From NCBI GenBank assembly GCA_046290465.1, contig JBKAGP010000001.1:608001-672000 (forward strand): DNA of 64,000 nt. The letters run 5' to 3'. The first letter of the stretch is position 1. Every line of letters starts with the position of its first letter. Positions 12,684 through 33,797 of the stretch are shown piece after piece. Source of the stretch: Planctomycetota bacterium (GTDB lineage: Bacteria; Planctomycetota; UBA1135; UBA2386). The position numbers and the translations under genes were made by a program. Under the pieces are notes generated by a model. That model did no database searches, was not told where the DNA came from, and saw only the letters and a program-made list of their open reading frames with translations.

Positions 12684-14057
12684 TCAATTGCCGATGATGC
12701 CTAGCGCGCCGTTGGATGTGCTGAACCCTGCGGGGGGCAGCAAAGACGCTGCCGTGGCCTGCGCGGCGATCGAACTGCCGATGAGGGCCGCCGACGGCGG
12801 CACCGCAATGGACAAGGTGCTGACCCCGCTGGCCGCGGGCGCGAGCAAGACGTCGATGACGTTCGTGAGGTAGGCGGAGCAGCCCGGCAAACCAGCAAAC
12901 GTCAGGTCGACGCCGCCCGGGATCGCGTTGTCGCCGAACCAGAAGAGGCATGATGGCGACGTCGGTTCGATGAACTGGGCTTGGAAATCCCAGGGGTGGC
13001 CCAGTCGGGGAGTCGTCGCAGCGAGCCGGAGGCCCGGAGCCGCACCGCAGCCGTTGCCGAACGCCACGAGAGATGCATCGTCAGGATCCGGCGCATACTC
13101 CCATGTGGTTCCCAGCCTGCTTCCGTCATAGCCACCGAAGACCACTGCCAGCCTTCGAGCTTCGTCGAATGCGAGCATGATCCGTTCGCGCTGGCCAGGC
13201 GTGGCTGCAGGGATGACCTGTTGCCAGGAGTTGCCATCGAACTCCCAGGTGTCATCGGCATACCCGAAGTTCACGGTTCCGCCGTAGACGATGGTCTTCT
13301 GACGGAACGGGTCGTAGCTCATGCCGTGGGCATAGCGCGGCGGGGGCGACTGGCTCGGCTGTAGTTGGGACCAGGACAGGCCATCCCACGACCAACTCTC
13401 GTTGTGCGAGGTCGCGCCATTGCACGGTGCGGCATCACATCGGCCGCCGTGCAGGAGGATCGCTCCAGCGGAGCGATCGAAGACCATGCCACACTCACTC
13501 GTTGCCGTCGGCGCGGGTCCGGTCGGGTTGCGCAGGGTCCAGTCTTGCCCGTCGTACTCCCAGGTCTCGCGCCAGCTGCCTGGTGAATATCCGCCATAGA
13601 GAACGCACACACCGCGCAACTCGTCATAGGCCATCGACGCGCTGTATCGCGGGTCGGGTGCCGTAGGAGTCGACACCTGAGTCCACGTGGTTCCATCCCA
13701 CTCCCAGGTGTCATTGGACGATGCGTTGGCCGAGGTGTAGCCGCCGAACATCACCACAACCTGACGGGCGGAGTCGTAGCAGATCGCTGGCCGAACTCGG
13801 CCGTCGGGGCCATTCGCCTGCACGTGTTGCGTCCAGTCGGAGCCATCCCACAGCCACGTCTCCGAAGAGTAGATGGATGCGCCGCCGGCGTTGCCGCCGA
13901 ACAGGACGCAGCTTCCGCGCGCCGCGTCGTAGGCCATGCCGTAGACCATGCGCGGTGATGGAGATGTGGCCGGGATTGCCTGGACCCAGGTCGCCTGGGA
14001 GAGCAAGGCAGTGCCGTAGGATGCAGTGACCAGGGCAAAGGCGAGGAAGCGCTTCAT
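12684..14057 (-). CDS. exported Kelch-like protein (TWEWDG repeats), atypical codon usage
   Basis: Signal peptide MKRFLAFALV...LLS-Q; repeats M.YD..R...V.FGG and DTWEWDG; more A/T-ending codons than neighbours. Confidence 0.85.
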   Translation of the reverse strand: MKRFLAFALVTASYGTALLSQATWVQAIPATSPSPRMVYGMAYDAARGSCVLFGGNAGGASIYSSETWLWDGSDWTQHVQANGPDGRVRPAICYDSARQVVVMFGGYTSANASSNDTWEWDGTTWTQVSTPTAPDPRYSASMAYDELRGVCVLYGGYSPGSWRETWEYDGQDWTLRNPTGPAPTATSECGMVFDRSAGAILLHGGRCDAAPCNGATSHNESWSWDGLSWSQLQPSQSPPPRYAHGMSYDPFRQKTIVYGGTVNFGYADDTWEFDGNSWQQVIPAATPGQRERIMLAFDEARRLAVVFGGYDGSRLGTTWEYAPDPDDASLVAFGNGCGAAPGLRLAATTPRLGHPWDFQAQFIEPTSPSCLFWFGDNAIPGGVDLTFAGLPGCSAYLTNVIDVLLAPAASGVSTLSIAVPPSAALIGSSIAAQATAASLLPPAGFSTSNGALGIIGN

Positions 14058-14126
14058 GGCAACCAAGCTAGCACCAGGTTCTCGGCTGCACCAAGCGGTT
14101 GGGAGCCATGCTCCGAGTCTCTTCCG

Positions 14127-14200
14127 AACCACCGCATACCGAACCGGTTCATCCTGCGCCGCGAAGCGGCGCAGGATGAAGCGGGTTCCTTACGCGTGGG
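14127..14200. repeat. palindromic REP/MITE-like element, copy 2
   Basis: Perfect 15-bp stem ttcatcctgcgccgc-gaa-gcggcgcaggatgaa; 14127-14162 is the inverted repeat of 12591-12627 with one indel. Confidence 0.85.
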
Positions 14201-14228
14201 TCGCCCTGCGGCGTCATGCCCTACGGCG

Positions 14229-15479
14229 TCAGCGCTTGGTCGGCCGCGGGGGCAGCCACGGCAGCTTCGGGACCGCGGCGCGGTCGGGGTAGACCTCGGC
14301 GCGGAGCTGGCGGCCGACCAGGGCGTGGTCGCCGCGCAGCGCCTGGAACGAGAAGTGCACGTGGCCGGGCATGACCGCGTCGGCGCGGCGCGTCAGCAGG
14401 ATCTCGTCGCGCAGTTCGGTGGCGCGGATGCGGCCGCCGCCGTCGCGGATCTTGCTGGTGTAGAGGCCGGGCCAGATCGCGCGGCCCTTGCGGTTCTGCG
14501 CGTGCCAGTAGTCCAGCAGCACCGCGAACGCCTGCGGCTTCTGGTCGATCGGCCAGTACAGCTGCGGCGTCAGGTAGTCGCACCAGCCGTTGCGCAGCCA
14601 CTTCGGCACGTCGGCGTAGATGTCGCTGTACTGGTCGAGTCCGGCCTGGATGCCCTTCGGCACGCCCGGCCGCGCGATCCCGAACGGGCTGATGCCGACC
14701 ATCAGCCACGGCTTCTCGTCGTGCACCAGCTGGTAGAGCCGTTCGACGAACGTGTCGATGTTCTGCCGACGCCAGTCGCCGCGCGACAGCTTGCCGCCCT
14801 GCTTGCGATAGGTCTGCCAGCTCGCGTCGTCGGGGAACGGCCGCTTGTTTTCCGGGTACGGATAGAAGTAGTCGTCGATGTGCACGCCGTCGACGTCGTA
14901 GCGGCGCACGACGTCCTGGATCACCGCCAGCGTCCACTTGCGCGCGGTCGGGTGGCCCGGGTCCATCCACGTCCAGCGACCGTACTTCCACGTCAGGTGC
15001 GGCGCGCGTCGGGTGACGTGGGTCTCGTGCGGCGGCGACTTGCTGGCCTTGTGCACGCAGCGGAACGGGTTGAACCAGGCGTGCAGCTGCAAGCCGTTGC
15101 GGTGGCAGCGGTCGACCAGGTAGGCGAGCGGGTCGAAGCCGTCGGCCGGCGCCTTGCCCTGCACGCCGGTCAGCCACTCCGACCACGGCTCCAGCGGCGA
15201 GTCGTAGAACGCGTCGCCGGCCGCGCGCACCTGGAAGATCAGCGCGTTGAGCCGCAGCTCGACGGCACGGTGCACGATCGCGTCGAGTTCGTCGCGCAGC
15301 TGGTCGACCGACAGTCCCTTGCGCGACGGCCAGTCGATGTTGTTGACGGTCGCGACCCACGCGGCGCGAAACTCGGCGGGCGTGCCGCCACGCGCACGGT
15401 CTTGTGCATCGACCGGCAGAGAACATGCGAGCGTCGCGAGCAGGCACGCGAACGGCAACCAGCGAAAGGCTTGGATCAT
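14229..15479 (-). CDS. GHL10-family glycoside hydrolase (YddW/DigH-like)
   Basis: EFRAAWVATVNNIDWPS, LHAWFNPFR, RYDVDGVHIDDYFYP and PQLYW motifs; signal peptide. Confidence 0.9.
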   Translation of the reverse strand: MIQAFRWLPFACLLATLACSLPVDAQDRARGGTPAEFRAAWVATVNNIDWPSRKGLSVDQLRDELDAIVHRAVELRLNALIFQVRAAGDAFYDSPLEPWSEWLTGVQGKAPADGFDPLAYLVDRCHRNGLQLHAWFNPFRCVHKASKSPPHETHVTRRAPHLTWKYGRWTWMDPGHPTARKWTLAVIQDVVRRYDVDGVHIDDYFYPYPENKRPFPDDASWQTYRKQGGKLSRGDWRRQNIDTFVERLYQLVHDEKPWLMVGISPFGIARPGVPKGIQAGLDQYSDIYADVPKWLRNGWCDYLTPQLYWPIDQKPQAFAVLLDYWHAQNRKGRAIWPGLYTSKIRDGGGRIRATELRDEILLTRRADAVMPGHVHFSFQALRGDHALVGRQLRAEVYPDRAAVPKLPWLPPRPTKR

Positions 15480-15702
15480 CGGCAAACAGCACCCCCGTAG
15501 CTCCCGTATCATGCCGGGTTCGACGCCGGTGTCCCACCTCGCTCTGCTCGAAGCGGCTGGCGGTGGGGTGTTGGCGGTTCGGGCCAACTTTCCTGCCGTC
15601 CTCGGCGACCTCGCAGACGGGATGCAGCGACGTCGCGTGCGAGCTACGTTGCATCCTTCCCGGCCGCGAATCTTCTCGGCCCGGACCGATACCCACGCCC
15701 AC

Positions 15703-18700
15703 ATGTCCGCCCCTCGCTCCCTGTTGTTCGTCGCGCTCGGCGCGTCGCTCGCCGTCGCCCAGAACGGCCGTCGCCCCGAGGACTTCCAGATCGCGATCGG
15801 CATGCAGAACCGCGGCCTGCACGAGGAGGCGGTGCGCTACCTGAGCAAGTTCGTGCGCGAGAACGGCCAGCACCAGCTCGTGCCCGAGGCCTACTACCGG
15901 CTGGCGCAGTCGCAGATCGAGCGCAAGCAGACCGACGCCGCCATCGACGCGCTGAAGAAGGCGCTGCAGCGCGGTGGCGCCAGGTTCGAGCTGCTGCCGG
16001 AGGCGCGCTACCGACTCGGCGGCCTGCTGCAGGAGAAGGGCGACCAGCAGGGGGCGCAGCAGCAGTTCGCGGCGCTGGCGGGCGGCGTCGCCGACGACCA
16101 CTACCTCGCAGCGGCGGCGAGCTACGCGCTCGGCGAGACGTTGCGCGACCTCGACCGCGACGCGCCGGCGGCCGAGGCGTTCGGCAAGGCGGCCGCGCTG
16201 GCCGACGGTGAGCAGCGCGGCTTCCGATTTCCGTCGCTGTACCAGCAAGGCTTCGCCTACCTGCGCCTCAACCAGTTCGATCCGGCCGCCAAGGCGTTCG
16301 CCCGGGCGTGCGACGTCGCGCCGGACCAGGCGGCCAAGGGCGAGTGCAGCTACCTGGTCGGCGACGCGCGGCTGCGGCTCGAGCAGTACGTACCCGCGCG
16401 ACAGGCGTTCGAGGCGGCGCGCAAGGTCGGCGGCGAGTTCGCCGACGACGCGCAGTTCGGCCTCGGCTGGGTCGCGCTCGGCAGCGACGATCGCGACGGC
16501 GCGCTGCGCGCGTTCGGGCGGCTGATCGAGCGCCACCCGGATTCTCCGTTCGTCGCCAATGCACGGCTCGAACGGGCGCGCTGCTACTACCAGGCGCAGC
16601 AGTTCGACCGGGCCGGCAACGAACTGCGGCCGCTGCTGGCCGAGGCCGGTCCGCTGCAGCAGGAGGCGCGCGAACTCGAAGGCCTGTGTGCGCTGGCCAG
16701 CGGCAAGGGCCAGGCGGCGGTGCAGACGCTGGAGCAAGCGCTCGCCGCGGCTAGCGACGAGGACAAGCCGCGGCTGTCGTTCGCGCTCGGTGAGGCGTTG
16801 TCCAACCTCGAGCAATGGGGCGATGCGCTGCGGGCCTACCGCGCGGTGCCGGCGTCGGTCGGCGCAGACCTCTACGGCGACGCGCTCTACGGCGCCTGCC
16901 ACGCGCTGCACGAACTCGGTCGCAACCAGGAGTCGATCCAGTGCGCCGACGCGGTCCTGCAGCTCGAGCCGGCGCACCGTTCGCGGGTGCTGGCGCAGCT
17001 GGCGATCGCCGAGAACCGCTTCGCGCTGCGCGAGTTCGCCGCCGCCGAGCAGGTCTACCAGCAGCTGGAGAAGGTCGACGCGCACCGCCGCACGGCGCGC
17101 TGGAAGCTGTCGTGGTGCCGCTACCTGCAGGGGGACAAGCAGGGCGCGGCCGAGCGCTTCGGTGCGGTCGCCAAGGACCGTGAGGACGGCAACGCCGAGG
17201 AGGCGATGGCGATGCAGGCGCTGGCGCTCTACGAGAGCGGCGCCCAGGACCCGGCGCTGCAGGTCGCCGACCGCTACCGCGCGCGCTACCAGCAGGGCCG
17301 CTTCCTGGCGCGCACCGAGCGGATCGCGGCGCGCGTGCTGCGCCAGCGCGGCGACCTCGGCGCGGCCCAGCGCCGGCTCGAGCGCGCCGCCGCGATCGCG
17401 CGGCAGCAGGGCGGTGACGAGGCCGGCAGCGCCGACGTCGCCGAGCAGGCCGACCTCGCCTACCAGCAGGGCGACTACGAGGCCGCCGACCAGCTGTTCG
17501 CGCAGCTGACGTCGCGCGACGACGCGACCGGCGCGCGCGCGCTGGCGGGGCGCGCGTGGTGTGCGTTCGAGCTGGGCAACGACGCGCCGTGCCTGCAGGC
17601 GCTGCAGGCAGCCCGGCAACACCCGGCGGCCAAGGACGAGCTGGCCGGGTTGCTCGAGCTGGAGTCGGCGGTGCGCCACCGGCGGCAGGAGTGGCCAGAG
17701 GCGATCCAGGCGGCGCGCACGTTCTTGCAGAACCACGGCAAGCACCCGAAGGCGCCGATGCTGCGCTATGCGCTCGGCGTCGCGCTGGCGCGCAACGGCG
17801 ACCAGAAGGGCGCGCAGCAGGTGCTCGCCGCGCTGGCCGCCGACGGCGGCTACAACGAGCCCGATCGCGTCGTCTACGAACTCGCGTGGGCGCTGCGGCG
17901 CGGCGGCGACGAACGCGCGGCGCTGCAGCAGTTCGGCAAGGTCACGGCGATGACCGAGGACGTCGAGCTGGCCGGCGAGTCGCGGCTGTTCGTCGGCACC
18001 GACCTGCTGGCGCAACAGCCACCGAAGCTCGCAGCCGCGCGCAAGGTGCTCGAGCAGGTGCAGGGCAGCCACCGCAAGCAGGCGCTCTACCGGCTCGGCT
18101 TCGCCGAGTTCGAGGCCGCGACCGCTGAGGCCGCGATCGCTGAGGATGGCGCGCCGGTCGATCGCAAGCTGCTCGGTGCAGCGCGCGACCACTTCACCGA
18201 GATCGTCGGCATCGAGGGCGAGGAGCTGCGCCACGAAGCGCTCTACCTCGGCGCCGAGTCGTGCCGACGGCTCGGCGATGCCGAGGGCGCGCTGCAGCGC
18301 GCGCAGCTGCTGCTGCGGGAGGCCAACCAGCACGCGCGCGCGCCGCGGGCGCGGTTGGTGGTCGGCGAGTGCGCCCTGCTTGCCGAACGGCCCGACGACG
18401 CGATCGCGCCGTTGGAGCGGTTCCTGCGCGAGCACGACGCCGCCGCGGACGAGGTCGCGCGCGCCGACGCGGCGCGCGCCAACCTGTGGCTCGGCAAGGC
18501 CCGGCTGCAGCGGCGCCAGCACGAGCAGGCCGAGCGCTGCTTCCAGCTGGTGACCGGCCTCAGCGACGGCGCGCTCGCGGCCGAGGCGCAGTTCCGGCTC
18601 GGCGAGAGCCGCGCGCTGCGCAACGACCTCAACGGCGCGGCCGACGCGTTCGTCAAGATCCCGATCCTCTATGCCGACGCCGAGTGGGTGCGTAAGGGCC

Positions 18701-18825
18701 TGCTGCAGGCCGGCCTCACCTACAAGCGCATGAAGCAGCCGGCCAAGGCCACGCGGTTCTTCGACGAGCTGCTCGACAAGCACAAGGGCAGCGACGAAGC
18801 CAAGGTCGCGGCCGCGCAACGATAG
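15703..18825 (+). CDS. large exported tetratricopeptide-repeat protein (CpoB/BamD-like repeats)
   Basis: Signal peptide ending LAVA-Q; many repeats such as EAYYRLA, EARYRLG, DAQFGLGW, HPDSPFVANA, EAQFRLG. Confidence 0.88.
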   Translation: MSAPRSLLFVALGASLAVAQNGRRPEDFQIAIGMQNRGLHEEAVRYLSKFVRENGQHQLVPEAYYRLAQSQIERKQTDAAIDALKKALQRGGARFELLPEARYRLGGLLQEKGDQQGAQQQFAALAGGVADDHYLAAAASYALGETLRDLDRDAPAAEAFGKAAALADGEQRGFRFPSLYQQGFAYLRLNQFDPAAKAFARACDVAPDQAAKGECSYLVGDARLRLEQYVPARQAFEAARKVGGEFADDAQFGLGWVALGSDDRDGALRAFGRLIERHPDSPFVANARLERARCYYQAQQFDRAGNELRPLLAEAGPLQQEARELEGLCALASGKGQAAVQTLEQALAAASDEDKPRLSFALGEALSNLEQWGDALRAYRAVPASVGADLYGDALYGACHALHELGRNQESIQCADAVLQLEPAHRSRVLAQLAIAENRFALREFAAAEQVYQQLEKVDAHRRTARWKLSWCRYLQGDKQGAAERFGAVAKDREDGNAEEAMAMQALALYESGAQDPALQVADRYRARYQQGRFLARTERIAARVLRQRGDLGAAQRRLERAAAIARQQGGDEAGSADVAEQADLAYQQGDYEAADQLFAQLTSRDDATGARALAGRAWCAFELGNDAPCLQALQAARQHPAAKDELAGLLELESAVRHRRQEWPEAIQAARTFLQNHGKHPKAPMLRYALGVALARNGDQKGAQQVLAALAADGGYNEPDRVVYELAWALRRGGDERAALQQFGKVTAMTEDVELAGESRLFVGTDLLAQQPPKLAAARKVLEQVQGSHRKQALYRLGFAEFEAATAEAAIAEDGAPVDRKLLGAARDHFTEIVGIEGEELRHEALYLGAESCRRLGDAEGALQRAQLLLREANQHARAPRARLVVGECALLAERPDDAIAPLERFLREHDAAADEVARADAARANLWLGKARLQRRQHEQAERCFQLVTGLSDGALAAEAQFRLGESRALRNDLNGAADAFVKIPILYADAEWVRKGLLQAGLTYKRMKQPAKATRFFDELLDKHKGSDEAKVAAAQR

Positions 18826-18838
18826 ACAGGACTCCGCC

Positions 18839-19573
18839 ATGCTCTCGCTGATGCCCCAGTCGCCGAACGTCGTGCAGACGATCGGCGAGTTCTTCACCGC
18901 CGGCGGCCTGTTGATGTGGCCGATCCTGATCTGCTCGATCGTGTTGGTCGGCCTTGCGCTCGAACGGTACCTGAGCCTGCGTCGCGGTCGCGTGCTGCCG
19001 CAGGTCGTCGTCGACGCGGCGCACCAGTGCACCGAGGGCCGCGCCGACGTGATCGCCGCCGGGATCCTCGAGGCCAGGGCGCCGGGCGCGCGCGTGCTGG
19101 CGGCCGGGCTGCGGCGCCGCGGCTGCCTGCTCGCCGACGTCGAGAAGGCGATGGAGGACCGCCTGCACGAGGAGGGCGCCAAGCTGAAGGGCAACGTCGC
19201 CGGCATCCTGGTGGTCGCCGCGGTCGCGCCGCTGCTCGGCCTGCTCGGCACCGTGCTCGGCATTGCCGACGCGTTCGCGGCGGTCGAACAGACCGGGCTC
19301 GGCAGCCAGGAGGGCAGCGAAGCGCTCGCCGCCGGCATCAAGGTCGCGCTCTACACGACGATCTTCGGCCTGTTCGTGGCGATCCCGGCGACGCTGCTCG
19401 CCGCGCACCTGAAGGCGCGCGCCCGGCGGCTGGTCGCGGCGATCGCCGACACCGTGACGCCGACCGTCGAGGCGCTGGCGTCGCTGCCGCCGACGGCGAA
19501 GACCCCGGACCCGGCCGCGGCCGAGCGGGACGCGGCGTCGAGCGACGAGCCGGAGGAGACCCATGCGGCTTGA
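18839..19573 (+). CDS. MotA/TolQ/ExbB proton channel protein
   Basis: GGLLMWPIL, APLLGLLGTVLG, LAAGIKVALYTTIFGLFVAIP. Confidence 0.95.
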   Translation: MLSLMPQSPNVVQTIGEFFTAGGLLMWPILICSIVLVGLALERYLSLRRGRVLPQVVVDAAHQCTEGRADVIAAGILEARAPGARVLAAGLRRRGCLLADVEKAMEDRLHEEGAKLKGNVAGILVVAAVAPLLGLLGTVLGIADAFAAVEQTGLGSQEGSEALAAGIKVALYTTIFGLFVAIPATLLAAHLKARARRLVAAIADTVTPTVEALASLPPTAKTPDPAAAERDAASSDEPEETHAA

Positions 19574-19976
19574 GTCCGACAGCGACGAAGAGCTCGGCAT
19601 CAACCTGATGCCGCTGGTCGACGTGGTGTTCCTGCTGCTGATCTTCTTTCTGGCGGCGACGACGTTCTCGCGCGACGAGGTCGAACTCGACCTGCGCCTG
19701 CCCGAGGCCAAGACCGGCGAGGCCGGCAAGTCCAACCGGCAGCTGATCATCAACGTGTCCTCGGACGGCTCGCTGACGATGGCGGGGCGCAACGTCACGT
19801 TCGAGGCGCTCAAGCAGAAGCTGGTCGCCGCCGTGTCGCGCAACAAGGACCAGGCGGTCTTGGTGCGCGGCGACAAGGCGGCGCAGTTCGGCATCGGCCT
19901 GCAGGTGCTCGACACCTGCCGGATGGCCAAGGTCAAGAAGGTCGACTTCGCGGCGCTGCCGTCGAAGAAGGGGTAG
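19563..19976 (+). CDS. ExbD/TolR family protein
   Basis: INLMPLVDVVFLLLIFF with the essential TM Asp; LRLP; VRGD. Confidence 0.95.
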   Translation: MRLESDSDEELGINLMPLVDVVFLLLIFFLAATTFSRDEVELDLRLPEAKTGEAGKSNRQLIINVSSDGSLTMAGRNVTFEALKQKLVAAVSRNKDQAVLVRGDKAAQFGIGLQVLDTCRMAKVKKVDFAALPSKKG

Positions 19977-19980
19977 GCAC

Positions 19981-22900
19981 ATGGCGATCGGGGCGCGCAC
20001 CAGGCGGTGGTTGATGTGGGCGGCGTGGACCGTCCTGTGCCTGGCGTCCGCGATGTACGTCGGCCTCGTCGTCGGTCGGCCGCTCTACTACAGCGACGGC
20101 GGCCAGCAGGTCGCCGGTGCCGACATGGCCGGCGCCGGCATGCTGCGCTGGACCACGCCCGCGGCCGAACGCGAACTGCCGGTCGATCCGATCGGGCGGG
20201 TGGCGCAGCTGCCGGACGGGGCGCTGCTGTTCGGCATGGCCACGGAAGCGGGCACCAGCGACCTGTTCACCTGGCACCCGGATCGCCCCGACGTGCCGCC
20301 CGAGCCCGCCTACGGTCTCAACACCGAGCACAACGAACTGGCGCCGGCGGTCGGTCCCGACCAGCGCGTCTACTTCACGTCGGACCGGCCGGACGCGATC
20401 GGCGGCTACGACCTGTTCGCGACCACCTGGACGCCGCGCGGCTTCGGCCGGGTGACGCCGATGGCGGCCTGCAACACGGCGTTCGACGAGACCGATCCGG
20501 CTCCCGATCCGACCGGCACGTCGCTGGTGTTCGTGCGCATCGACCGCGCCATCGACGACGGCAACGACGGCGTGCTCTACCGCTGGCTGCTCGGCGATCC
20601 GCTCGATCCGTCGCTGGTGTTCCCCGACCAGGCGCGCCGCCGCGAACGGGTGGTCGATCGCGATCCGGCGTTCGCGCCCAACGGTGCGTCGCTGTGGTTC
20701 GTGCGCAAGTTGCGCGGCCGGCCGCTGCTGGTGTGCCGCACCAGCCGGCTCGGCGACGCGTTCGACCGCCCGGTCGAACTGTCGCTCGCATGGGGCACGC
20801 GGTCGCTGCGCAGCCCGCTGCCGCTGCCGGACGGGCAGTCGGTCGCGTTCGTGCAGCCGGCGGCCGGCGAGGACCCGGCGCTGTGGTTCGTCAGCCGTGC
20901 CGAGGAGTTGGTGCCGTGGTGGCCCGGCCAGCAGTGGCTCGAATGGCTGTGCCTGTCGCTGATCGCGTGCGCGGCGCTGCTGCTGCTGCTGCTCTACTTC
21001 GGCCAGCGCTGGAGCGCGCTCGACCTGGTCGCGCAGTGCCTGCTGCTGTCGCTGCTGCTGCACGTGCTGCTGTTCCTGTGGCTGATGGGCGTCGAGATCG
21101 CCGGCTCGCTGCTGCCCGGCAGCGACGACGACGACAGCGGCATGCAGGTCAGCATCGTCGCCTCCGCGGGCGTGGCCAGCGCGAGCCCTTCGGGCGGTGC
21201 GGGCGACGTCGCCGCCAAGGTGCAGCGCACGGTGCGCGAACGTTCGTTCGAGGTGGCCCAGCCGGGCACGGCGACGCAGCGGCCGCAGCCCGACGCGAGC
21301 AACAGCCTCGCGGTCGAGAGCGGCGCCTACCAGGCCGAGCCGACCGCCGAGGCCGAGGCCGAGCCGGCGCAGCTCGACGACGCCGCGGCCGAACTGCAGA
21401 AGCGCGACGGCAGCGATGCGGCGGCCGAACTGCAGCAGGCTGCGATCGGCGCCGTCCAACAGGTGCAGCAGCGAGCCGATCGGGCAGCTGCGCGTTCGGC
21501 AGCGGCCGATCCGAACGCCGAGGCCCGGGTCGTTAGGGTCGAGACGCCCGGCAGCGGCGTGGCGCGCGCGGCGGCGCGCGCGGTCGAGATCGCTGAGGGC
21601 GACGCCAACGCGGCGATCCCGATGCGATCGAGCCCGTCCAACAGCAGCTCGCCCGATGCGCCGGCGATGCAGGACGCCGCCTCGGCGGCGTCGCTGGCCG
21701 CGGCCGAAACGCGCGCGGACGCGGCGCCCGCACCGGTCGGCATGACCACCGAGGCGTCGCTGTCGGCGGCGCCGGCGAGCGCGTCGGTCGCGGCTCCAGA
21801 GCGCGGCGCCAGCAAGACCAGCGACGACGCGGTCACGGTCGCGATGCCCGGCAGCACCGTCGGTCGTTCGGCCAGCCGTCGCATCGACGCCCAGCCGGCG
21901 GCGCGCGAGGTCGCGGTCGCCGGGCCGCGCAGCCTGCCGCGACCCAGCATGCAGCTGCGCGGCGATCGCCCGGCCGGCGGCGCGCTGCCGGCGCGCAGCG
22001 AGGCCGCCGGCCCCGCACCGACTGCTGCGGTCGCCGCCGTCGAGGTGACGGCACCGGCCACACCCGACACGTCGACGGTCCGGGCGGCCCGCACCGCGCG
22101 GGCCGGCGAGCGGCCGTCGCCGCGCGAATCGCTGGCGACGCCGGGCTCGGCGCTGCGCCGTTCGCGACCGGTGGTGGCGATGCGCGGGCCGAGCGTGCGC
22201 ACGGCGCCGAAGGCCAGCCTGCGCGGTGGTGCGCCGATCGCGCTGAAGGATGGCGGCGGCCGACGCCCCGGCGGCGACGCGCCCAGCCGCGAGCCGCGAG
22301 CAGCGGCGGCCAGTGCGCCGGTCGCCGCCGCCGCGCAGCCGCTGCCGGACCAGCCGACCGGCAACCCGTCGTTCGCGCCGCGGCGCGCGCGCCCGGCGCG
22401 CAGCAGCACCGCCGGGGCGTTCGCCGCGCGGTTCCCGGTGACGCCGCCCGGCACCGAGGTCGCGCGCGCCGCGCCGCGGCCGTCGTCGCTGCCGCAGCCG
22501 AGCCAGCCGGTGGTCCAGAAGAACGCCTACAGCAACCGCTTCGGCCCGGCCAAGGCGCAGGCGCTGGAGCGCTTCGGCGGCACCGAGGAGACCGAGCGCG
22601 CGGTGCGCGACGGGCTGGCCTACCTGGCCAGCATCCAGAACCGCGACGGCTCGTGGGGCAACCGCCGCGACTACGACGGCAAGTACGGCTTCGTCTACGT
22701 CGGCAAGACCGCGCTGTGCATGCTGGCGTTCCTGGGCGCGGGCCACACGCCGTCGTCGAACAGCGAGCACTCGGTGGTGGTCACCCGCGCGCTCGAGCAT
22801 CTGCTGGCGCTGCAGGACGAGGACACCGGCGCGTTCGGCCGCAGCTCGTGCTACGGCCACGGCATCGCGACCTATGCGCTGGCCGAGTGCTACGGCCTGA

Positions 22901-23631
22901 CCAAGAACGACGACCTGCTGCGCCCGCTCGAGGACGCGCTGACCTGGATCCTGGCCAACCAGGGCCCGCGCAGCGACCAGCGCAACCGCGGCGGCTGGGG
23001 CTACTTCTCGCCCGGTCTGCGGGCCGAGGACAGCTACGCGCGCGTGTCGGTGTCGTCGTGGATGATCATGGCGCTCGAGTCGGCGCGTCTGTCGGGCATC
23101 GAACTGCCCGAGGACGTGCTGCCGGCGGCGCGCCAGTACCTCGAGCTGTCGTTCGACCGCCCGAACGGCTGGTTCCGCTACAACCACAAGCCGTCGCGGC
23201 TGCGCTCTGGCTGGCCGACGCTGCCCGCCAGCACGCCGGCGGCGGCGTTCTGCCTGATGCTGATGGGCGTCGAGAAGGACGACCGCATGGTCGAGGTCGC
23301 CAGCGACTACACGGTCGAGCGCCGGCCGCGCAGCTACCGGCGCTACCGCGACGACGACTTCGTGCTGCGCGGCCAGGGCAACGTCTACTTCTGGTACTAC
23401 GGCTCGCTGTGCTGCTTCCTGAAGGGCGGCCAGCAGTGGCAGCGGTGGAACGAACGGCTCAGCACGGTACTGCCGCAGGCGCAGAACGAGGACGGCTCGT
23501 GGACGCCGATCGACGTCTACGCCGAGGAGGCCGGCGACAACCGGCGTGACCGCAGCTACACGACGGCGATGTGCGTGCTGAGCCTGGAGGTCTACTACCG
23601 ATACTTCACGCCGCTGCTGTTGGGTCGGTAG
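19981..23631 (+). CDS. multidomain membrane protein: PD40/TolB-like propeller, TM helices (SxxxH), Ala/Pro-rich linker, prenyltransferase/squalene-cyclase-like barrel
   Basis: LNTEHNELAPAV..D.RVYFTSDR..GGYDLF (PD40); SLLLH; QW motifs QNRDGSW, QDEDTGAF, QNEDGSW. Confidence 0.85.
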   Translation: MAIGARTRRWLMWAAWTVLCLASAMYVGLVVGRPLYYSDGGQQVAGADMAGAGMLRWTTPAAERELPVDPIGRVAQLPDGALLFGMATEAGTSDLFTWHPDRPDVPPEPAYGLNTEHNELAPAVGPDQRVYFTSDRPDAIGGYDLFATTWTPRGFGRVTPMAACNTAFDETDPAPDPTGTSLVFVRIDRAIDDGNDGVLYRWLLGDPLDPSLVFPDQARRRERVVDRDPAFAPNGASLWFVRKLRGRPLLVCRTSRLGDAFDRPVELSLAWGTRSLRSPLPLPDGQSVAFVQPAAGEDPALWFVSRAEELVPWWPGQQWLEWLCLSLIACAALLLLLLYFGQRWSALDLVAQCLLLSLLLHVLLFLWLMGVEIAGSLLPGSDDDDSGMQVSIVASAGVASASPSGGAGDVAAKVQRTVRERSFEVAQPGTATQRPQPDASNSLAVESGAYQAEPTAEAEAEPAQLDDAAAELQKRDGSDAAAELQQAAIGAVQQVQQRADRAAARSAAADPNAEARVVRVETPGSGVARAAARAVEIAEGDANAAIPMRSSPSNSSSPDAPAMQDAASAASLAAAETRADAAPAPVGMTTEASLSAAPASASVAAPERGASKTSDDAVTVAMPGSTVGRSASRRIDAQPAAREVAVAGPRSLPRPSMQLRGDRPAGGALPARSEAAGPAPTAAVAAVEVTAPATPDTSTVRAARTARAGERPSPRESLATPGSALRRSRPVVAMRGPSVRTAPKASLRGGAPIALKDGGGRRPGGDAPSREPRAAAASAPVAAAAQPLPDQPTGNPSFAPRRARPARSSTAGAFAARFPVTPPGTEVARAAPRPSSLPQPSQPVVQKNAYSNRFGPAKAQALERFGGTEETERAVRDGLAYLASIQNRDGSWGNRRDYDGKYGFVYVGKTALCMLAFLGAGHTPSSNSEHSVVVTRALEHLLALQDEDTGAFGRSSCYGHGIATYALAECYGLTKNDDLLRPLEDALTWILANQGPRSDQRNRGGWGYFSPGLRAEDSYARVSVSSWMIMALESARLSGIELPEDVLPAARQYLELSFDRPNGWFRYNHKPSRLRSGWPTLPASTPAAAFCLMLMGVEKDDRMVEVASDYTVERRPRSYRRYRDDDFVLRGQGNVYFWYYGSLCCFLKGGQQWQRWNERLSTVLPQAQNEDGSWTPIDVYAEEAGDNRRDRSYTTAMCVLSLEVYYRYFTPLLLGR

Positions 23632-23659
23632 GCCCGGCGGGCTACTGTGCCGGCCCCAG

Positions 23660-24232
23660 ATGTCCAACACCAAGTTCGTGCTCCGCACGGTCGTGCTCGC
23701 GCTCGCGGGCAGCGTGCTCGTCTTCCTCGGCGTCGGCCTGATCCTGGCCGACGAATGGACGGTCACGACCACGCGCACGATGGCGCTGCCGCCGGCGCAG
23801 GTCGCCGGGGCCGTGCGCGACCTCGACGCGTGGTCGAAGTGGTCGTCGATCGACTTCCAGCTCGGCAACCCGACCAACCGCAGCTTCCGCGGCGAGGCCG
23901 GCAAGCCGGGGCAGGAGGCGATGTGGAGCGGCCCGCTCGGCCAGGCGGTGGTGACGCTCGACGCGGTGACCGAGACCGGCGTCGACTACCGCATCGGCTT
24001 CGTCTACCGCCAGGGCAACACCGGCGGCAAGTTCGCCGGCAGCATCAGCTGGAAGGCGAACGGCGGCTCCACCGAGGTGACCTGGACCGAGCACGGCAAG
24101 CTCAACTCGCTGATCGAGCGCTGGACCAACTGGTTCGGGGCGCTGCAGGACAAGGTGCAGCAGATCCAGCGCGCCAGCCTCGCCGGCCTCGAGGAGCACG
24201 TGCTCGAGCAGCAGCCGGACGGCAACAAGTAG
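23660..24232 (+). CDS. SRPBCC/START-like (polyketide cyclase) family protein with N-terminal TM
   Basis: W.VTTTRTM.LPP..V...V.DL.AW.KWS; GSTEVTW; ASLAGL terminal helix. Confidence 0.8.
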   Translation: MSNTKFVLRTVVLALAGSVLVFLGVGLILADEWTVTTTRTMALPPAQVAGAVRDLDAWSKWSSIDFQLGNPTNRSFRGEAGKPGQEAMWSGPLGQAVVTLDAVTETGVDYRIGFVYRQGNTGGKFAGSISWKANGGSTEVTWTEHGKLNSLIERWTNWFGALQDKVQQIQRASLAGLEEHVLEQQPDGNK

Positions 24233-24289
24233 CCGCCGCTGCAGCGCCCGGTCGCGCGGTCGAACGGTCCCGCGATGGAACCCGTCGCG

Positions 24290-24796
24290 CTACTGGACCG
24301 TCACCGTGACCGGGATCGTCTGCGCCGCCAGCGGCACGGCGGCGCCGGCGCTGGTCGCGGCGCGCAGGCCGCGCAGCGCGATCGTGTAGGTGCCGGGTTG
24401 GCGCGGCTGGCTCGGCTGCACGCGCAGCCGGAACAGGTCGCCGATCGGCAGCGGGTCGGCGGACGGGTTGGTCGAATCGCCGCACAGCACCACGAAGCGC
24501 TCCCCGTCGAAGTCGCCGTCGACCGACAGCGGCGCGATCGCGCTCAGCCGCTGCTGCTGCTGGGCCAACTGCAGCTGCGGCGGCAGTTCGACATCGACCT
24601 GCAGCAGGGCCGGCGCCGGCGACGCGGTGCTGCGCAGCGCCACGATCAGGTCGGTGCCGTCGGCCGAGGGCGCGATCGGTGCCGTGGTCGCGGTGAACGC
24701 GGCGCTCTGCGTCACCGGCGGCGTGCCGTCACCGCCGCCGCCACCGCCACCGCAGGCTGCCAGCAGGAGAACCGCGATCGGGGAGCTTCGCCGCAT
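24290..24796 (-). CDS. lipoprotein with cohesin-like beta-sandwich
   Basis: Lipobox LLAAC followed by poly-Gly; beta-rich domain (LQVDVEL, GDLFRLRV). Confidence 0.7.
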   Translation of the reverse strand: MRRSSPIAVLLLAACGGGGGGGDGTPPVTQSAAFTATTAPIAPSADGTDLIVALRSTASPAPALLQVDVELPPQLQLAQQQQRLSAIAPLSVDGDFDGERFVVLCGDSTNPSADPLPIGDLFRLRVQPSQPRQPGTYTIALRGLRAATSAGAAVPLAAQTIPVTVTVQ

Positions 24797-24869
24797 GGCA
24801 GAAGGGTAGCCGATCCCCGGCAACAGGGAAGGGCTCGCGCGCCGGCCTGGACCCTGCGACGATGGCGCC

Positions 24870-27011
24870 ATGAACAAGCCGTGGGGCGTGGTGTTGGGGC
24901 TGCTGTCGATGGCCGCCCTGCCGGGGCAGGAGCACGGCGGTGGGCAGGCCGGGCAAGGCGACCGGCAGGAGCCGCGCCCGGCCAACCGCCTCGACAAGGA
25001 GTCGTCGCCGTACCTGCGCCAGCACCGGCACAACCCGGTCGACTGGCACCCGTGGGGCGACGAAGCGCTCGCGCTGGCCAAGAAGCTCGACAAGCCGATC
25101 TTCCTGAGCATCGGCTATTCGGCGTGCCACTGGTGCCACGTGATGGCGGCCGAGAGCTTCTCGGACCCCGAGGTCGCCAAGCTGATGAACGAGAAGTTCG
25201 TCTGCATCAAGGTCGACCGCGAGGAGCGGCCCGACATCGACCAGATCTACATGGGCGCGCTGCACGCAATGGGCAAGCAGGGCGGCTGGCCGCTGTCGGC
25301 GTGGCTGACGCCGGACGGCAAGCCGTTCTTCGGCGGCACCTACTTCCCGCCGACGGCGAGCCGCGGCCTGCCGTCGTTCCGCCTGGTCTGCGAGTCGCTC
25401 GCCAACGCCTGGGCGGACGAGCGCGACAAGGTGCTGCAGGGTGCGGGCGAGCTGAGCGAGCACCTCGAGCAGGCGCTGGCGCCGTCGCTGCCGGCGGGCG
25501 AGCCGACGCCGGCGCTGTTCGGCAAGGTGCTGGCGGAGGCCCGGGACTGGTACGACGCCGAGCATCCGGGCTTCGCCGCACCGCCGCGGTTCGCGCCGAA
25601 GTTCCCGCAGGCCTCGCAGCTGCAGATGCTGCTGCGGAACGACGACCAGCAGGGCCGCGCGATGGCGCTGGCGGCGCTGCGCGCGATGGCGCGCGGCGGC
25701 ATCCACGACCAGCTCGGTGGTGGCTTCCATCGCTACAGCACCGACCGCCGCTGGCTGGTGCCGCACTTCGAGAAGATGCTCTACGACAACGCGCTGTTGG
25801 CGTCGGCATACCTCGAGGCGAGCCAGGTGGAGAAGGACGGACCGTTCGCGAGCGTCGCGCGCAGCACGCTCGACTACCTGCTGCGCGAGATGCAGGCGCC
25901 CGACGGTGGCTTCTGGTCGAGCCAGGACGCGCAGTCCGAAGCCGTCGAGGGCAAGTTCTTCGTCTGGAGCCGTGACGAGATCGAGCAGCTGCTCGGCGAC
26001 GACGCCGAGCTCGTCTGCGACGTGTTCGGGGTGACGGCGGCCGGCAACTGGGACGGCACCAACGTGCTGTGGCAGGCGCAGGACGTGCCCGCGACCGAGG
26101 CGTTCGCCGCGGCGCGTGCCAGACTGTTCGCAGCGCGCGCCGAGCGGGTGCGGCCCGGCACCGACGACAAGGTGCTGGTGGCGTGGAACGGCATGGCGAT
26201 CGAAGCGCTGTGCGACGGCTACCGCGTGCTCGGCGACCGTCGCTACCTCGAGGCCGCGCAACGCGCCGGTGCGTTCCTGCTCGAACGGTGCGTGGTCGAC
26301 GGTCGGGTCCGCCGCAGCTGGCAGGGTGGCAGCGCGCCGTTCGCCGGCTACCTCGAGGACCATGCCTCGCTGGCCAACGCGCTGCTGGCGCTGTTCGAGA
26401 GCGACTTCGAGGGGCGCTGGCTGCGCGCCGCGAAGCAGGTGCTGCAGACCACCAGGGACCACTTCCGGGCCGAGGACGGTTCGTTCTACTTCACCGCCGA
26501 CGACCACGAGCAGCTGCTGGCGCGCACCAAAAGCGCCAGCGAGGGCGCGACGCCGTCCGGCATCGCGATGGCGGCGCGGGCGTTCTTGCGGGCGGGGCTG
26601 CTGCTCGGCGACGACGCCGTCTACCAGCTGGGGGCCGGCGCGCTGCGCGCCAACCACGCGCTGCTCGCCCACAGCCCGGCGTCGGCGCCGGCGCTGATGC
26701 GCGCGGTGCAGCTGCACCTCGGCGCGCCCAAGGAGATCGTGATCGCCGGCCGACCCGACGACGCGCGCACCCAGGCGCTGCTGCGCGCGGCGTGGCGGCG
26801 GTTCCCGCAGCCCGGCGTGGTCGCGTGCGTGCACGACGGCAACCGCGAGGCGCTGGTGGCGATCAGCAAGGTCTTCGATGGCAAGCTGCCGAGGGACGGC
26901 GCGCCGTGCGCCTACGTCTGCGAACGGGGCGTCTGCCAGGCGCCGGTCACGACGGTCGACGCGCTGCGGCAGGCGTGGGGGGCGGCGAAGCCCGCGGAGG
27001 GCGGCAGGTGA
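24870..27011 (+). CDS. thioredoxin-domain protein, YyaL/DUF255 family
   Basis: [52 protein letters not shown]. Confidence 0.93.
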
Positions 27012-31416: not shown

Positions 31417-32319
31417 CTACTCGGGGCAGCCGTCGGCGATCCACTTGCGGATCGTCTCGATCTCGGCCTTGGTCAGCTGCTCCTCGTCCTTCGGCGGCAT
31501 GTGCGCGTCGTCGTCGAGCGGCAGCGCGAACGACTCGAGCATCGCGCTCTCCTCGGGCTTGCCGGGGATCACGATCTGCTCGTCGCCCCAGCCCTCGAGC
31601 ACCATCTTGCGCGTCGTCAGGTCGAGGTCGCCCTCGTAGTCCTTGGGGTTGTGGCACTGCGTGCAGACGCGCTCCATGATCGGCTGGATCTCGGTCGCGT
31701 AGCGGGAGGCGGCCGGCGGCGTGCCCGGCTGCTGGTCGCCTGCATTCTGGCCACCTGCATTCTGGCCACCTGCACCCTGGTCACCTGCACCCTGGCCACC
31801 TGGATCCTGGCCACCTGGATTCTGGCCACCTGGATCCTGGCCGCCGGGCTCGACCGTCGGCTGCCCCTGCTGCTGGTCGAGCGCGCGCGTCAGCGGCTTG
31901 AACAGGAAGTCCTTCTTGTGCGTCAGCGTGCCGCCGAAGTGGCCCGTCGGGACCGACAGCGCCAGCGCCGCCGCGAGCGCCAGACGGAACGGCCGGCGGC
32001 TCTTGCGCGGCGCCAGGATCGGCAGCAGGACGCAGCACGACGCCATCGCGATCGCGAACTTCTTGTGCAGGCCGAGTACCTCGGAGTCGACCTTCTCGGC
32101 GGCGAGCACCCAGCCCGAACCGAACGCGGCGGCGGCGGTCAGCGCCGTCATCACCGCGAGCGTCAGCAGCGCACCCTTGGGGATGTTGCGTCGGAAGATC
32201 GCGGCGCCGAACTCGAGCACCGCCATCGCCGGGATCAGCCCGATCGGCAGGTGCAGCAGCACGATGTGGAAGCGGCCGAACACTTCCAGCCAGACGGACG
32301 AATCGACTTGGAGAACCAT
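31417..32319 (-). CDS. membrane protein (DUF2231-like TM region) fused to a planctomycete-type cytochrome c domain
   Basis: GRFHIVLLHLPIG, GHFGGTLTH; IQPIMERVCTQCH; HMPP; IRKWIADG. Confidence 0.85.
   Translation of the reverse strand: MVLQVDSSVWLEVFGRFHIVLLHLPIGLIPAMAVLEFGAAIFRRNIPKGALLTLAVMTALTAAAAFGSGWVLAAEKVDSEVLGLHKKFAIAMASCCVLLPILAPRKSRRPFRLALAAALALSVPTGHFGGTLTHKKDFLFKPLTRALDQQQGQPTVEPGGQDPGGQNPGGQDPGGQGAGDQGAGGQNAGGQNAGDQQPGTPPAASRYATEIQPIMERVCTQCHNPKDYEGDLDLTTRKMVLEGWGDEQIVIPGKPEESAMLESFALPLDDDAHMPPKDEEQLTKAEIETIRKWIADGCPE
31732..31845. repeat. 15-bp in-frame tandem repeat (about 7.5 units) encoding G(G/D)Q(D/N/G)(P/A)
   Basis: ctggccacctg(c/g)a(t/c)(t/c) units. Confidence 0.9.
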
Positions 32320-32332
32320 CGCGGGGCTCGTT

Positions 32333-33793
32333 CTACGCAATCAGCTCGGGAACGACACGTCCGAAAACGTCGGTCAGGCGGTAGTCGCGCCCCTGGTGGC
32401 GGTAGGTCAGGCGTTCGTGGTCGAAGCCGAGCAGGTGCAGCAGCGTCGCGTGCAGGTCGTGCACGCTGACCGGATCGCGCACGATGTTGTAGCCGAAGTC
32501 GTCGGTCTCGCCGTGCACGTGGCCGCGGTTGACGCCGCCGCCGGCCATCCACATCGTGAAGCAGCGCGGGTGGTGGTCGCGACCGTAGTTGGTCTTGCTG
32601 AGGCCGCCCTGGCTGTAGACCGTGCGGCCGAACTCGCCGCCCCAGACCACCAGCGTGTCGTCCAGCAGGCCGCGCCGGCGCAGGTCGGTCAGCAGCGCGG
32701 CGATCGGGCGGTCGACGGCCTTGCACTGCTTGCGGATCTCGCTCGGCAGGTTGCCGTGCGCGTCCCAGCCGCGCATGTAGAGCTGCACGAAGCGCACGCC
32801 GCGCTCGTTGAGTCGGCGCGCCATCAGGCAGCTCTGCGCGAACGTGCCCGGCTTCTGCGCCTCGTCGCCGTACAGGTCCCAGGTCGCCTGGTCCTCGTCG
32901 GCGAGGTCGACCAGTTCGGGCACCGAGGCCTGCATCCGGAAGGCCATCTCCTGCTGCGCGATGCGCGCGTCGATCTCGGCGTCGCCCGTGCGCGCGCGCT
33001 CCTGCTCGGCGAACGCGTGGACCAGGTCGAGCATGCGGCGACGGTCCTGGCGGGTCACGCCGGGCGGGTCGCTGAGGTAGAGCACCGGGTCGCCGCTGCT
33101 GCGCAGCTTGCAGCCCTGGTGCTCGCTCGGCAGGAAGCCGTTGCCCCAGAAGCGCGCCGCCAGCGCCTGCATGTTGCCGAAGCCCTGGGTGATCATCACC
33201 ACGAACGTCGGCAGGTCCTTGTTGTCGCTGCCGAGGCCGTAGCTCGCCCACGAGCCGAAGCTCGGCCGGCCGGGCTGCTGGTTGCCGGTCTGCGCGAACG
33301 TGATCGCCGGCTCGTGGTTGATCGCCTCGGTGTGCATCGAGCGCACCACGCACAGCTCGTCGGCGACGCGGCCGAGGTGCGGCATCAGTTCGCTGATGTA
33401 GACGCCGTCGCCGCCGTTGTCGTGCTTGTCGAAGCGGAACAGCGACGGCGCGACCGGGAACCGCTTCTGGCCCGAGGTCATGCCGGTCAGGCGCTGGCCG
33501 TTGCGGATCGAGTCGGGCAGGTCGGTGTCGTAGAGGCGATGCAGGTCCGGCTTGTGGTCGAACAGGTCGAGGTGGCTCGGGCCGCCCTCCATGTGCAGGT
33601 AGATGACGCGGCGCGCCTTCGGTGCGAAGTGCGGCCCGTCGCCGTCGCCGATCGGCCGCGGCGGCCGGCCGAGGCTCGAGGCGAGCGCGGTCGAACCGAG
33701 CATGCCGGTCAGGCCGGTGGCGGCCGCTCCCTGGAAGAAGCGGCGCCGCGACAGGGACATCAGGTGGTCCCGGAGGAGGTCTTGGTCGGCCAT
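32333..33793 (-). CDS. DUF1501 domain protein with Tat signal
   Basis: SRRRFF; AKRVIYL.M.GGPS-like motif; EAINHEPA; WGGEFGRT; GRDHHP. Confidence 0.93.
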   Translation of the reverse strand: MADQDLLRDHLMSLSRRRFFQGAAATGLTGMLGSTALASSLGRPPRPIGDGDGPHFAPKARRVIYLHMEGGPSHLDLFDHKPDLHRLYDTDLPDSIRNGQRLTGMTSGQKRFPVAPSLFRFDKHDNGGDGVYISELMPHLGRVADELCVVRSMHTEAINHEPAITFAQTGNQQPGRPSFGSWASYGLGSDNKDLPTFVVMITQGFGNMQALAARFWGNGFLPSEHQGCKLRSSGDPVLYLSDPPGVTRQDRRRMLDLVHAFAEQERARTGDAEIDARIAQQEMAFRMQASVPELVDLADEDQATWDLYGDEAQKPGTFAQSCLMARRLNERGVRFVQLYMRGWDAHGNLPSEIRKQCKAVDRPIAALLTDLRRRGLLDDTLVVWGGEFGRTVYSQGGLSKTNYGRDHHPRCFTMWMAGGGVNRGHVHGETDDFGYNIVRDPVSVHDLHATLLHLLGFDHERLTYRHQGRDYRLTDVFGRVVPELIA

Positions 33794-33797
33794 CGGT

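Follow-up and report, generated by a model that had tools for sequence, protein, structure and literature searches.

The 64,000-nucleotide stretch of planctomycete DNA analyzed here (the window; positions 608,001 to 672,000 of contig JBKAGP010000001.1) carries, at 15703-24232, a five-gene operon that we consider likely to encode a proton-motive-force-driven envelope machine of the Ton/Tol type, with the 1216-residue product of its fourth gene (P0004) as the force transducer. To our knowledge, TonB and TolA were long the only known carriers of proton-motive force to the outer envelope. The proposal follows from motor residues that are intact in the ExbB/TolQ-type (T138, T173, T174 and P183 of P0002) and ExbD/TolR-type (D20 of P0003) subunits, from a histidine-bearing transmembrane (TM) helix, a D-box-like strand, a spacer and a head in P0004, and from the conserved order of the genes. 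The genome containing the operon is complete in a single contig of 6.59 Mb, and the surrounding stretch has about 72% G+C. An earlier note on this DNA (the original prediction) had described five tightly packed co-directional genes, and the open reading frames (ORFs) listed below confirm that description. All run in one direction, with very high third-position G+C, and are spaced by +13, -11 (an overlap), +4 and +28 nucleotides (nt).

15703..18825, plus strand: P0001, 1040 amino acids (aa), exported tetratricopeptide repeat (TPR) protein with YbgF/CpoB-like TPR modules
18839..19573, plus strand: P0002, 244 aa, ExbB/TolQ-type proton-channel subunit
19563..19976, plus strand: P0003, 137 aa, ExbD/TolR-type subunit; its start overlaps the end of P0002 by 11 nt
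19981..23631, plus strand: P0004, 1216 aa, candidate force transducer; begins 4 nt past P0003
23660..24232, plus strand: P0005, 190 aa, membrane-anchored SRPBCC/START-like protein; begins 28 nt past P0004

P0004 was modeled in two parts, residues 1-387 from 36 sequences (predicted local distance difference test score, pLDDT, 91.2) and the head, residues 836-1216, from 38 sequences (pLDDT 89.4; predicted template-modeling score, pTM, 0.90). The following segments were delimited.

19993..20073, plus strand: TM1, residues 5-31, model helix with pLDDT above 88
20086..20916, plus strand: TolB-like beta-propeller, residues 36-312, six-bladed, by model, Foldseek and PD40 repeats; predicted to be periplasmic
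20920..21087, plus strand: TM2-TM3 hairpin, residues 314-369, model helices 314-341 and 345-369, with R343 in the short loop
21139..21165, plus strand: strand-like motif GMQVSIVAS, residues 387-395, about 18 residues past TM3; candidate D-box or motor box
21166..22530, plus strand: Ala/Pro-rich linker, residues 396-850 (about 455), with four PG[ST]x[VL]xR motifs
21547-21567, 21847-21867, 22141-22161 and 22447-22467, plus strand: the PG[ST]x[VL]xR motifs, at residues 523, 623, 721 and 823, spaced by about 100 residues
22531..23628, plus strand: (alpha/alpha)6 toroid, residues 851-1216, with QW-type repeats and the invariant C-terminal tail YYRYFTPLL

The N-terminus of P0004 is Arg-rich and would therefore lie in the cytoplasm; with this N-in topology, the propeller, the linker and the head would all be periplasmic. 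The SLLLH helix named in the original prediction is present in TM3 as S357-L-L-L-H361. H361 was invariant in 15/15 and in 36/36 sequences, S357 was near-invariant, with Ala instead in distant orthologues, and R343 in the TM2-TM3 loop was conserved in at least 90% of sequences. For comparison, roles are known for S16 and H20 of TonB, and CpoB binds TolA. In the strand past TM3, V390 was at least 90% conserved and lies inside a G-x-x-V-x-L pattern (15 sequences). The D-box of TonB, as the text of PMC10907165 describes it, is captured by the ExbD dimer through strand recruitment and occupies the same position as residues 387-395, which by analogy may bind the ExbD dimer in a like manner. A complex prediction for the ExbD dimer with residues 345-420 of P0004 scored 0.00 in both runs; its controls did not fold, and the result weighs neither for nor against this contact.

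The PG[ST]x[VL]xR motifs of the linker would be expected far less than once by chance (a hand estimate from composition). Several orthologues repeat it about every 100 residues, with five copies in locus L063, four in L040 and three each in L045 and L056; in the most distant clade the pattern found no copy. The four linker units of about 100 residues could be aligned at the motif only, and TRF detected no DNA-level tandem repeat under the periodicity.

P0002 belongs to the MotA_ExbB family (Pfam PF01618, E 1.2e-25) and P0003 to the ExbD family (PF02472, E 1.4e-29). The four pore residues of P0002 were invariant in 34/34 sequences, as was the TM aspartate D20 of P0003, whose presence the original prediction had pointed out. 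Against solved structures, the P0002 profile scored higher with TolQ (89 bits) than with ExbB (68 bits). P0002 did not reach the cut-off of the ExbB equivalog TIGR02797 (44 bits against 206), and the TolQ and TolR equivalogs were not reached either (TIGR02796, 65 bits against 221; TIGR02801, 64 bits against 127). By sequence, the membership of P0002 and P0003 in TolQ/TolR is at superfamily level only.

The association of P0004 with the motor genes was examined in related loci collected by a one-genome-per-species scan via two toroid motifs, which found 217 loci, of which 80 were kept. Nearly all of the 244 scored homologues of P0004 come from metagenome-assembled genomes (MAGs) labeled 'Planctomycetota bacterium', under the names of hypothetical, PD40-domain or squalene-oxidase-repeat proteins, and the sole cultured carrier found was Engelhardtia mirabilis Pla133 (locus L100). 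In 48 loci the gene was full-length and 4.5 kb or more of upstream sequence was available; 46 of these had the order TPR-ExbB-ExbD-P0004, which persisted down to 25-35% identity, mostly with overlapping ExbB and ExbD genes. The TPR protein encoded upstream of ExbB is about 1000-1050 aa long. In the first exception, L034, the TPR gene was matched by tblastn. In the second, L085:6705-13198, a TPR gene is followed by a P0004-like gene (N-terminal part 31% identical) with no ExbB or ExbD between them.

The flanking families (GHL10, DUF255 and GNAT) are common to close relatives only, and none is shared at about 25-40% identity; clustering the neighbors of the 80 loci revealed no fifth family reaching the distant clades. 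Since the flanking families are not shared with the distant clades, the four-gene core is conserved beyond background synteny, its members staying together throughout a deep planctomycete lineage. A distinct ExbB/ExbD-type module with P0004 in the transducer slot, as the original prediction had it, is thereby borne out by gene order and by the invariant histidine, and the core genes are neighbors even where flanking synteny is lost. The possibility that P0004 is a passenger beside a Ton motor is unlikely from these comparisons and was rejected, the synteny being too strict.

P0005 was matched by Polyketide_cyc2 over residues 33-181 (46.6 bits, cut-off 27.4; E 5.4e-12) and has an N-terminal TM helix. 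Its gene was adjacent to the core in 27 of 70 loci, all of them closer relatives, and was missing from distant clades that keep the four-gene core. By these sequence comparisons, P0005 is an accessory gene and not part of the core.

For the distribution in the phylum, the first 400 residues of P0004 were searched against an even sample of 301 Planctomycetota genomes. Matches at E <= 1e-10 occurred in 34 genomes, in 23 of which the match extends through TM3. A profile of residues 1-387, run against 1.84 billion cluster representatives, gave 1,959 matches at E <= 1e-30, other PD40 proteins included; most of the best 150 of these cover the profile in full, once per protein and at the N-terminus, the proteins being about 1100-1450 aa long.

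In the mechanism that we propose, P0002 and P0003 would form a 5:2 motor, and TM3 of P0004 would dock on the rim of the ExbB pentamer via H361, as TonB and TolA do. The ExbD dimer would capture strand 387-395 like a D-box, the motor would pull the linker, and the force would reach whatever the toroid head grips at the cell wall or the outer membrane. As periplasmic partners we propose the TolB-like propeller, clamped to the membrane, and the CpoB-like P0001, which is exported; the four linker motifs are candidate docking sites for them.

The C-terminal head bears on what this machine may act upon. The original prediction had named a terpene-cyclase-like barrel, and the confident head model and the fold searches agree with it. 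The top Foldseek matches were the single-domain proteins 8paj and 8pak, which resemble squalene-hopene cyclase (SHC), together with MstE and SHC (E about 5e-8, TM-score about 0.6). VIA-align gave Z 26.3 for 8paj and Z 26.0 for SHC 1gsz, with GH76 mannanases and sugar epimerases at Z 23-24; because these score close behind the cyclases, the fold alone names no function. Likeness to SHC at the sequence level is confined to the QW repeats in hidden Markov model (HMM) alignments. P0004 reached 26.0 bits with SQHop_cyclase_C (PF13243), just under the cut-off of 26.1, and 24 bits with TIGR01507 (cut-off 431). The head alignments contain no conserved DxDD; orthologues have GDNAF or SEDAF in place of the RDDDF stretch. 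An Atlas search retrieved only planctomycete clusters labeled 'SQHop_cyclase_C / Pec_lyase / TED' that have no assigned function.

The head is also the best-conserved part of the operon, 84 columns being invariant among 38 sequences. Compared with the window, the most distant loci were 51-55% identical in the head, 23-28% in the N-terminal part of P0004, about 30% in ExbB and 32-36% in ExbD. The loci were collected via the two toroid motifs, which inflates the apparent conservation of the toroid.

These features bear on the lipid and isoprenoid handling that the original prediction had emphasized, in which the toroid would bind or convert a terpenoid or lipid, the START protein would carry it and the motor would power its movement between membranes. 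Class II terpene cyclases with QW repeats are the top fold matches (8paj and 1gsz, Z 26), P0005 combines an SRPBCC domain with a membrane anchor, and the toroid surpasses the remainder of the operon in invariant residues, as could be expected if it bound one unchanging small molecule. The emphasis is not supported, in view of the limited presence of the START gene and its loss in distant clades, the replaced RDDDF stretch, an SHC likeness that amounts to QW repeats, the nearly equal scores of GH76 enzymes and epimerases, and the genome itself, in which no squalene-hopene cyclase was found (best TIGR01507 score 32.7 bits, cut-off 431). We regard this explanation as improbable. A true terpene cyclase was rejected as an identity for the head, which has no DxDD and sits on a periplasmic tether.

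Another explanation makes the toroid a glycan- or cell-wall-active catalyst on a leash, with a motor that only positions or regulates it. Most (alpha/alpha)6 toroids are carbohydrate-active enzymes, and the head has invariant acidic and basic residues (E134, D182, D351, E368, H125, R186 and R238 in the numbering of alignment A2). No known catalytic signature was recognized in the head, however, and the invariant histidine helix and the tight coupling to ExbB/ExbD favor force transduction, which leaves the tethered enzyme very doubtful.

The genome contains about nine toroid-domain paralogues, although no squalene-hopene cyclase was found in it. Two toroid-bearing paralogues, ORFs of 540 and 551 aa, are encoded at genome positions 2835296-2836915 and 2839162-2840814 (L115:9297-10919 and 13163-14818). 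Both combine a TonB-like TM helix with SxxxH (SAAIH and SVGVH, respectively), a Pro-rich spacer and a P0004-type toroid, and no ExbB or ExbD gene was found near them. Their 813 homologues at E <= 1e-10 mostly measure about 505-510 aa and carry the name 'terpene cyclase/mutase family protein'. Because these short paralogues join anchor, spacer and toroid, a toroid seems to serve repeatedly as the head of TonB-like tethers in this lineage.

The N-terminal domain of P0004 and the product of the first gene point in a Tol-like direction. PD40 was detected in P0004 at E 5.4e-8, and a Foldseek search with the model of residues 1-387 returned TolB structures in every row down to rank 18 (2w8b, E 2.5e-12). 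A statement that TolB is absent would accordingly need correcting, a TolB-like propeller being fused into P0004; the propeller, the periodic motif of the linker and the separate canonical Ton cluster described below are additions to the original prediction. A canonical TolB identity for the propeller was rejected on account of its wrong topology and a score under the cut-off. In the predicted topology, the propeller is anchored to the inner membrane at both ends.

P0001 has a Sec-type signal peptide, judged by eye, and matched many TPR families. It scored 155.6 bits with the YbgF/CpoB model TIGR02795 (cut-off 90.1), summed over four stretches of which 935-1038 was the best. Its C-terminal 141 residues alone gave 51.7 bits, C-terminal pieces from four P0001 orthologues all matched the same model, and this C-terminal part was the best kept portion in distant relatives. 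At about 1040 aa, P0001 is too large to be a CpoB orthologue, and a phmmer search with its C-terminus found nothing among PDB sequences.

TolB (TIGR02800) reached at best 77 bits in this genome (cut-off 343) and stayed below the cut-off throughout the sample of 301 Planctomycetota genomes, to which this one belongs; the cut-off was reached in the controls, E. coli and Caulobacter. Only two OmpA-domain matches were found, at 0.568 Mb (L110:1078-1821) and at 1.990 Mb (L109:1468-2112, minus strand). Each encodes a lipoprotein whose N-terminal part is a coiled coil; neither is linked to motor genes, and both are possible Pal-like partners.

The propeller, the TPR modules and the ExbB profile, which resemble TolB, CpoB and TolQ, respectively, and a genome sample in which no canonical TolB was found lead us to favor a Tol-like role over nutrient import. 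The operon probably serves envelope mechanics, that is, tethering or remodeling of the outer membrane or cell wall in a Tol-Pal-like manner; nutrient import and terpenoid chemistry are less likely roles. A bolder variant, which we think rather unlikely, holds that the operon is the Tol-Pal equivalent of a deep planctomycete lineage, with TolA- and TolB-like parts fused into one protein, a toroid that grips an invariant envelope component, for example peptidoglycan or an outer-membrane glycan or lipid, and a motor working as a winch. Either the ExbD dimer or the four CpoB-like modules of P0001 would then catch successive linker modules, and the outer envelope would be reeled in over a very long distance, which would suit wide, invaginated periplasms and changing shapes.

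Envelope force transduction in general can be weighed against the other motors of the genome. Six MotA/ExbB-family matches were found, namely this operon, a MotA-MotB pair at 4.70 Mb, two further clusters and one weak match. A Ton cluster at 5.63 Mb comprises ExbB-ExbB-ExbD-TonB beside a Plug-domain receptor, so the canonical TonB of the genome, sitting in its own cluster with ExbB, ExbD and a TonB-dependent transporter (TBDT), is not motor-less. TonB_C was matched twice, at 2.82 and 5.64 Mb, and four Plug-domain receptors were found. All TonB_C, Plug and OmpA-domain matches of the genome lie outside the window, in keeping with the earlier statement that it lacks TonB, Pal and a TonB-dependent receptor. 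A second non-canonical motor cluster, at genome positions 1696103-1705420 (L113:2104-11421), opens with genes for a TPR protein (960 aa) and an exported protein (372 aa), which precede ExbB, two ExbD genes and a lipoprotein-type secretin (889 aa), in this order.

A Ton-like import or export gate, in which the toroid would engage and open a channel of the outer membrane, for instance a secretin or a TBDT-like barrel, has from this inventory a small chance. Its anchor, linker and motor would share the logic of TonB, the ExbD profile is nearest to solved ExbD, and the genome encodes four Plug-domain receptors as well as a secretin whose gene is linked to a different ExbB-ExbD-ExbD set. It is opposed by the lack of an outer-membrane protein gene conserved beside the operon in any clade, by a P0004 that has no TonB_C domain and by a TBDT-linked Ton cluster that is complete by itself.

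Several observations weigh against the force-transducer proposal or its Tol-like form. P0004 has three TM helices and an additional propeller, compared with the single-pass TonB and TolA, and the domain search detected neither TonB_C (PF03544) nor TolA domain III in it; its propeller, membrane-tied at both ends, could not shuttle to the outer membrane like TolB. The P0003 profile scored higher with solved ExbD (82 bits) than with TolR (55 bits), and since that of P0002 is nearest to TolQ, the motor cannot be assigned clearly to either Tol or Ton; all Tol and Ton equivalog scores in NCBIfam are far under their cut-offs. No Pal or TBDT gene was found near the operon, and this motor might in principle serve the product of the orphan TonB_C gene at 2.82 Mb. 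The toroid fold is common to many enzymes, and its apparent conservation is subject to the inflation noted above. With only about 23 of the 301 genomes carrying the full N-terminal architecture, the operon is not the general Tol substitute of the phylum. The link between P0004 and the motor, which we hold to be probable, is drawn from sequence, synteny and models.

The identity of the cultured carrier brings in one further explanation, a surface-motility or shape-changing machine whose motor would, much as in Agl-Glt, drag a surface adhesin or a fold of membrane. Engelhardtia mirabilis is described as a member of the 'shapeshifting' Saltatorellus group, gliding is proposed for the vWA class of transducers in the text of Williams-Jones et al. 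(PMC12204202), and the linker of P0004 is long enough to cross a wide periplasm. Neither ExbB nor TonB nor MotA is mentioned in the main text of the Saltatorellota preprint, no adhesin or Glt-type gene is conserved near the operon and most carriers are uncultured; we consider this the most doubtful of the explanations.

The surroundings of the operon were also surveyed. A promoter scan of the operon region returned 0 promoter-like sites, and a terminator scan returned two terminator-like sites that overlap at 24232-24246 of the minus strand and share one hairpin, not above shuffled sequences; Rfam gave no match in 14000-26000. An unusually long gap of 637 nt without an assigned gene (24233-24869), which has no Rfam match, separates the START gene from a DUF255 gene, and an ORF in another frame that overlaps it (24275-25975) is probably spurious. 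The Thioredox_DsbH/DUF255 gene downstream of the operon (24870-27011) was present in 35 of 80 related loci. The solved structure of Bab1_2064 (7tkv), titled as Thioredox_DsbH domain-containing, matched the head model of P0004 through its residues 175-620 (Z 21.7). At 31417-37394 on the minus strand lie genes for a PSCyt1 protein, DUF1501 and a 1198-aa PSCyt1-PSCyt2-PSD1 protein, a trio typical of planctomycetes.

If the force-transducer proposal is true, a third type of head would widen the repertoire of outputs of 5:2 motors. The toroid-headed form is conserved across more than 100 protein clusters at 50% identity and is fused to a TolB-like propeller, and the operon would be a candidate for coupling the outer membrane to the cell in Planctomycetes, in whose sampled genomes canonical TolB was not found. 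The cultured carrier Engelhardtia mirabilis Pla133 makes the question testable, with the best-conserved toroid head as the obvious target for finding its ligand.

Compared with known systems, the head of P0004 shares the (alpha/alpha)6 fold of class II terpene cyclases and SHC-like proteins (8paj, 8pak, MstE 6sbb and SHC 1gsz; Z 22-26, root-mean-square deviation about 3 A over 284-296 residues) and their QW repeats. It differs from them in its low identity (15-19%), the missing conserved DxDD, a PF13243 score just short of the cut-off and its placement behind a motor, where it terminates a periplasmic tether, and GH76 enzymes and epimerases match it almost as well. With the Ton system, the operon has in common a motor with the conserved Asp and Thr residues and a partner whose S-x-x-x-H helix is accompanied by a strand placed like the D-box and by a spacer containing Pro; it differs in having no TonB_C and no linked TBDT, in a genome that has a separate complete Ton cluster. 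The types of parts are those of Tol-Pal, namely a TolQ/TolR-like motor with an ExbB profile nearest to TolQ, a long arm with SxxxH, a TolB-type propeller and a CpoB/YbgF-like TPR protein. Their arrangement differs, in that the propeller is fused, clamped to the inner membrane and without the N-terminal domain of TolB, a toroid stands in place of TolA domain III, the operon has no Pal gene and P0001 is about four times the size of CpoB.

Literature searches found no publication that joins squalene, prenyltransferase, ExbB and planctomycetes and, among the papers listed, no description of a toroid-headed force transducer, and the terms 'toroid', 'prenyltransferase', 'squalene' and 'PD40' do not occur in the main text of Williams-Jones et al. 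2025 (Mol Biol Evol, PMC12204202). The remark in the original prediction that no functional description was known therefore stands, within these searches, for the toroid-headed form and needs qualifying by a sister class published in 2025. As far as the main text of that article describes them, the closest published relatives of P0004 are the members of this class, vWA-headed transducers with an SHLS-type helix encoded behind TPR, tolQ and tolR genes in Planctomycetes-Verrucomicrobia-Chlamydiae (PVC) bacteria; the class extends to other bacteria as well. On the same textual basis, the operon encodes one ExbD where the vWA class has a heterologous pair, and P0004 differs in its (alpha/alpha)6 toroid in place of a vWA head, its two extra TM helices, its N-terminal TolB-like propeller and its linker of about 455 residues compared with about 100. 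Common to both is a transducer gene downstream of TPR and tolQ/tolR-like genes, and P0004 fits the shared plan of a histidine-bearing TM helix, a disordered linker and a globular head.

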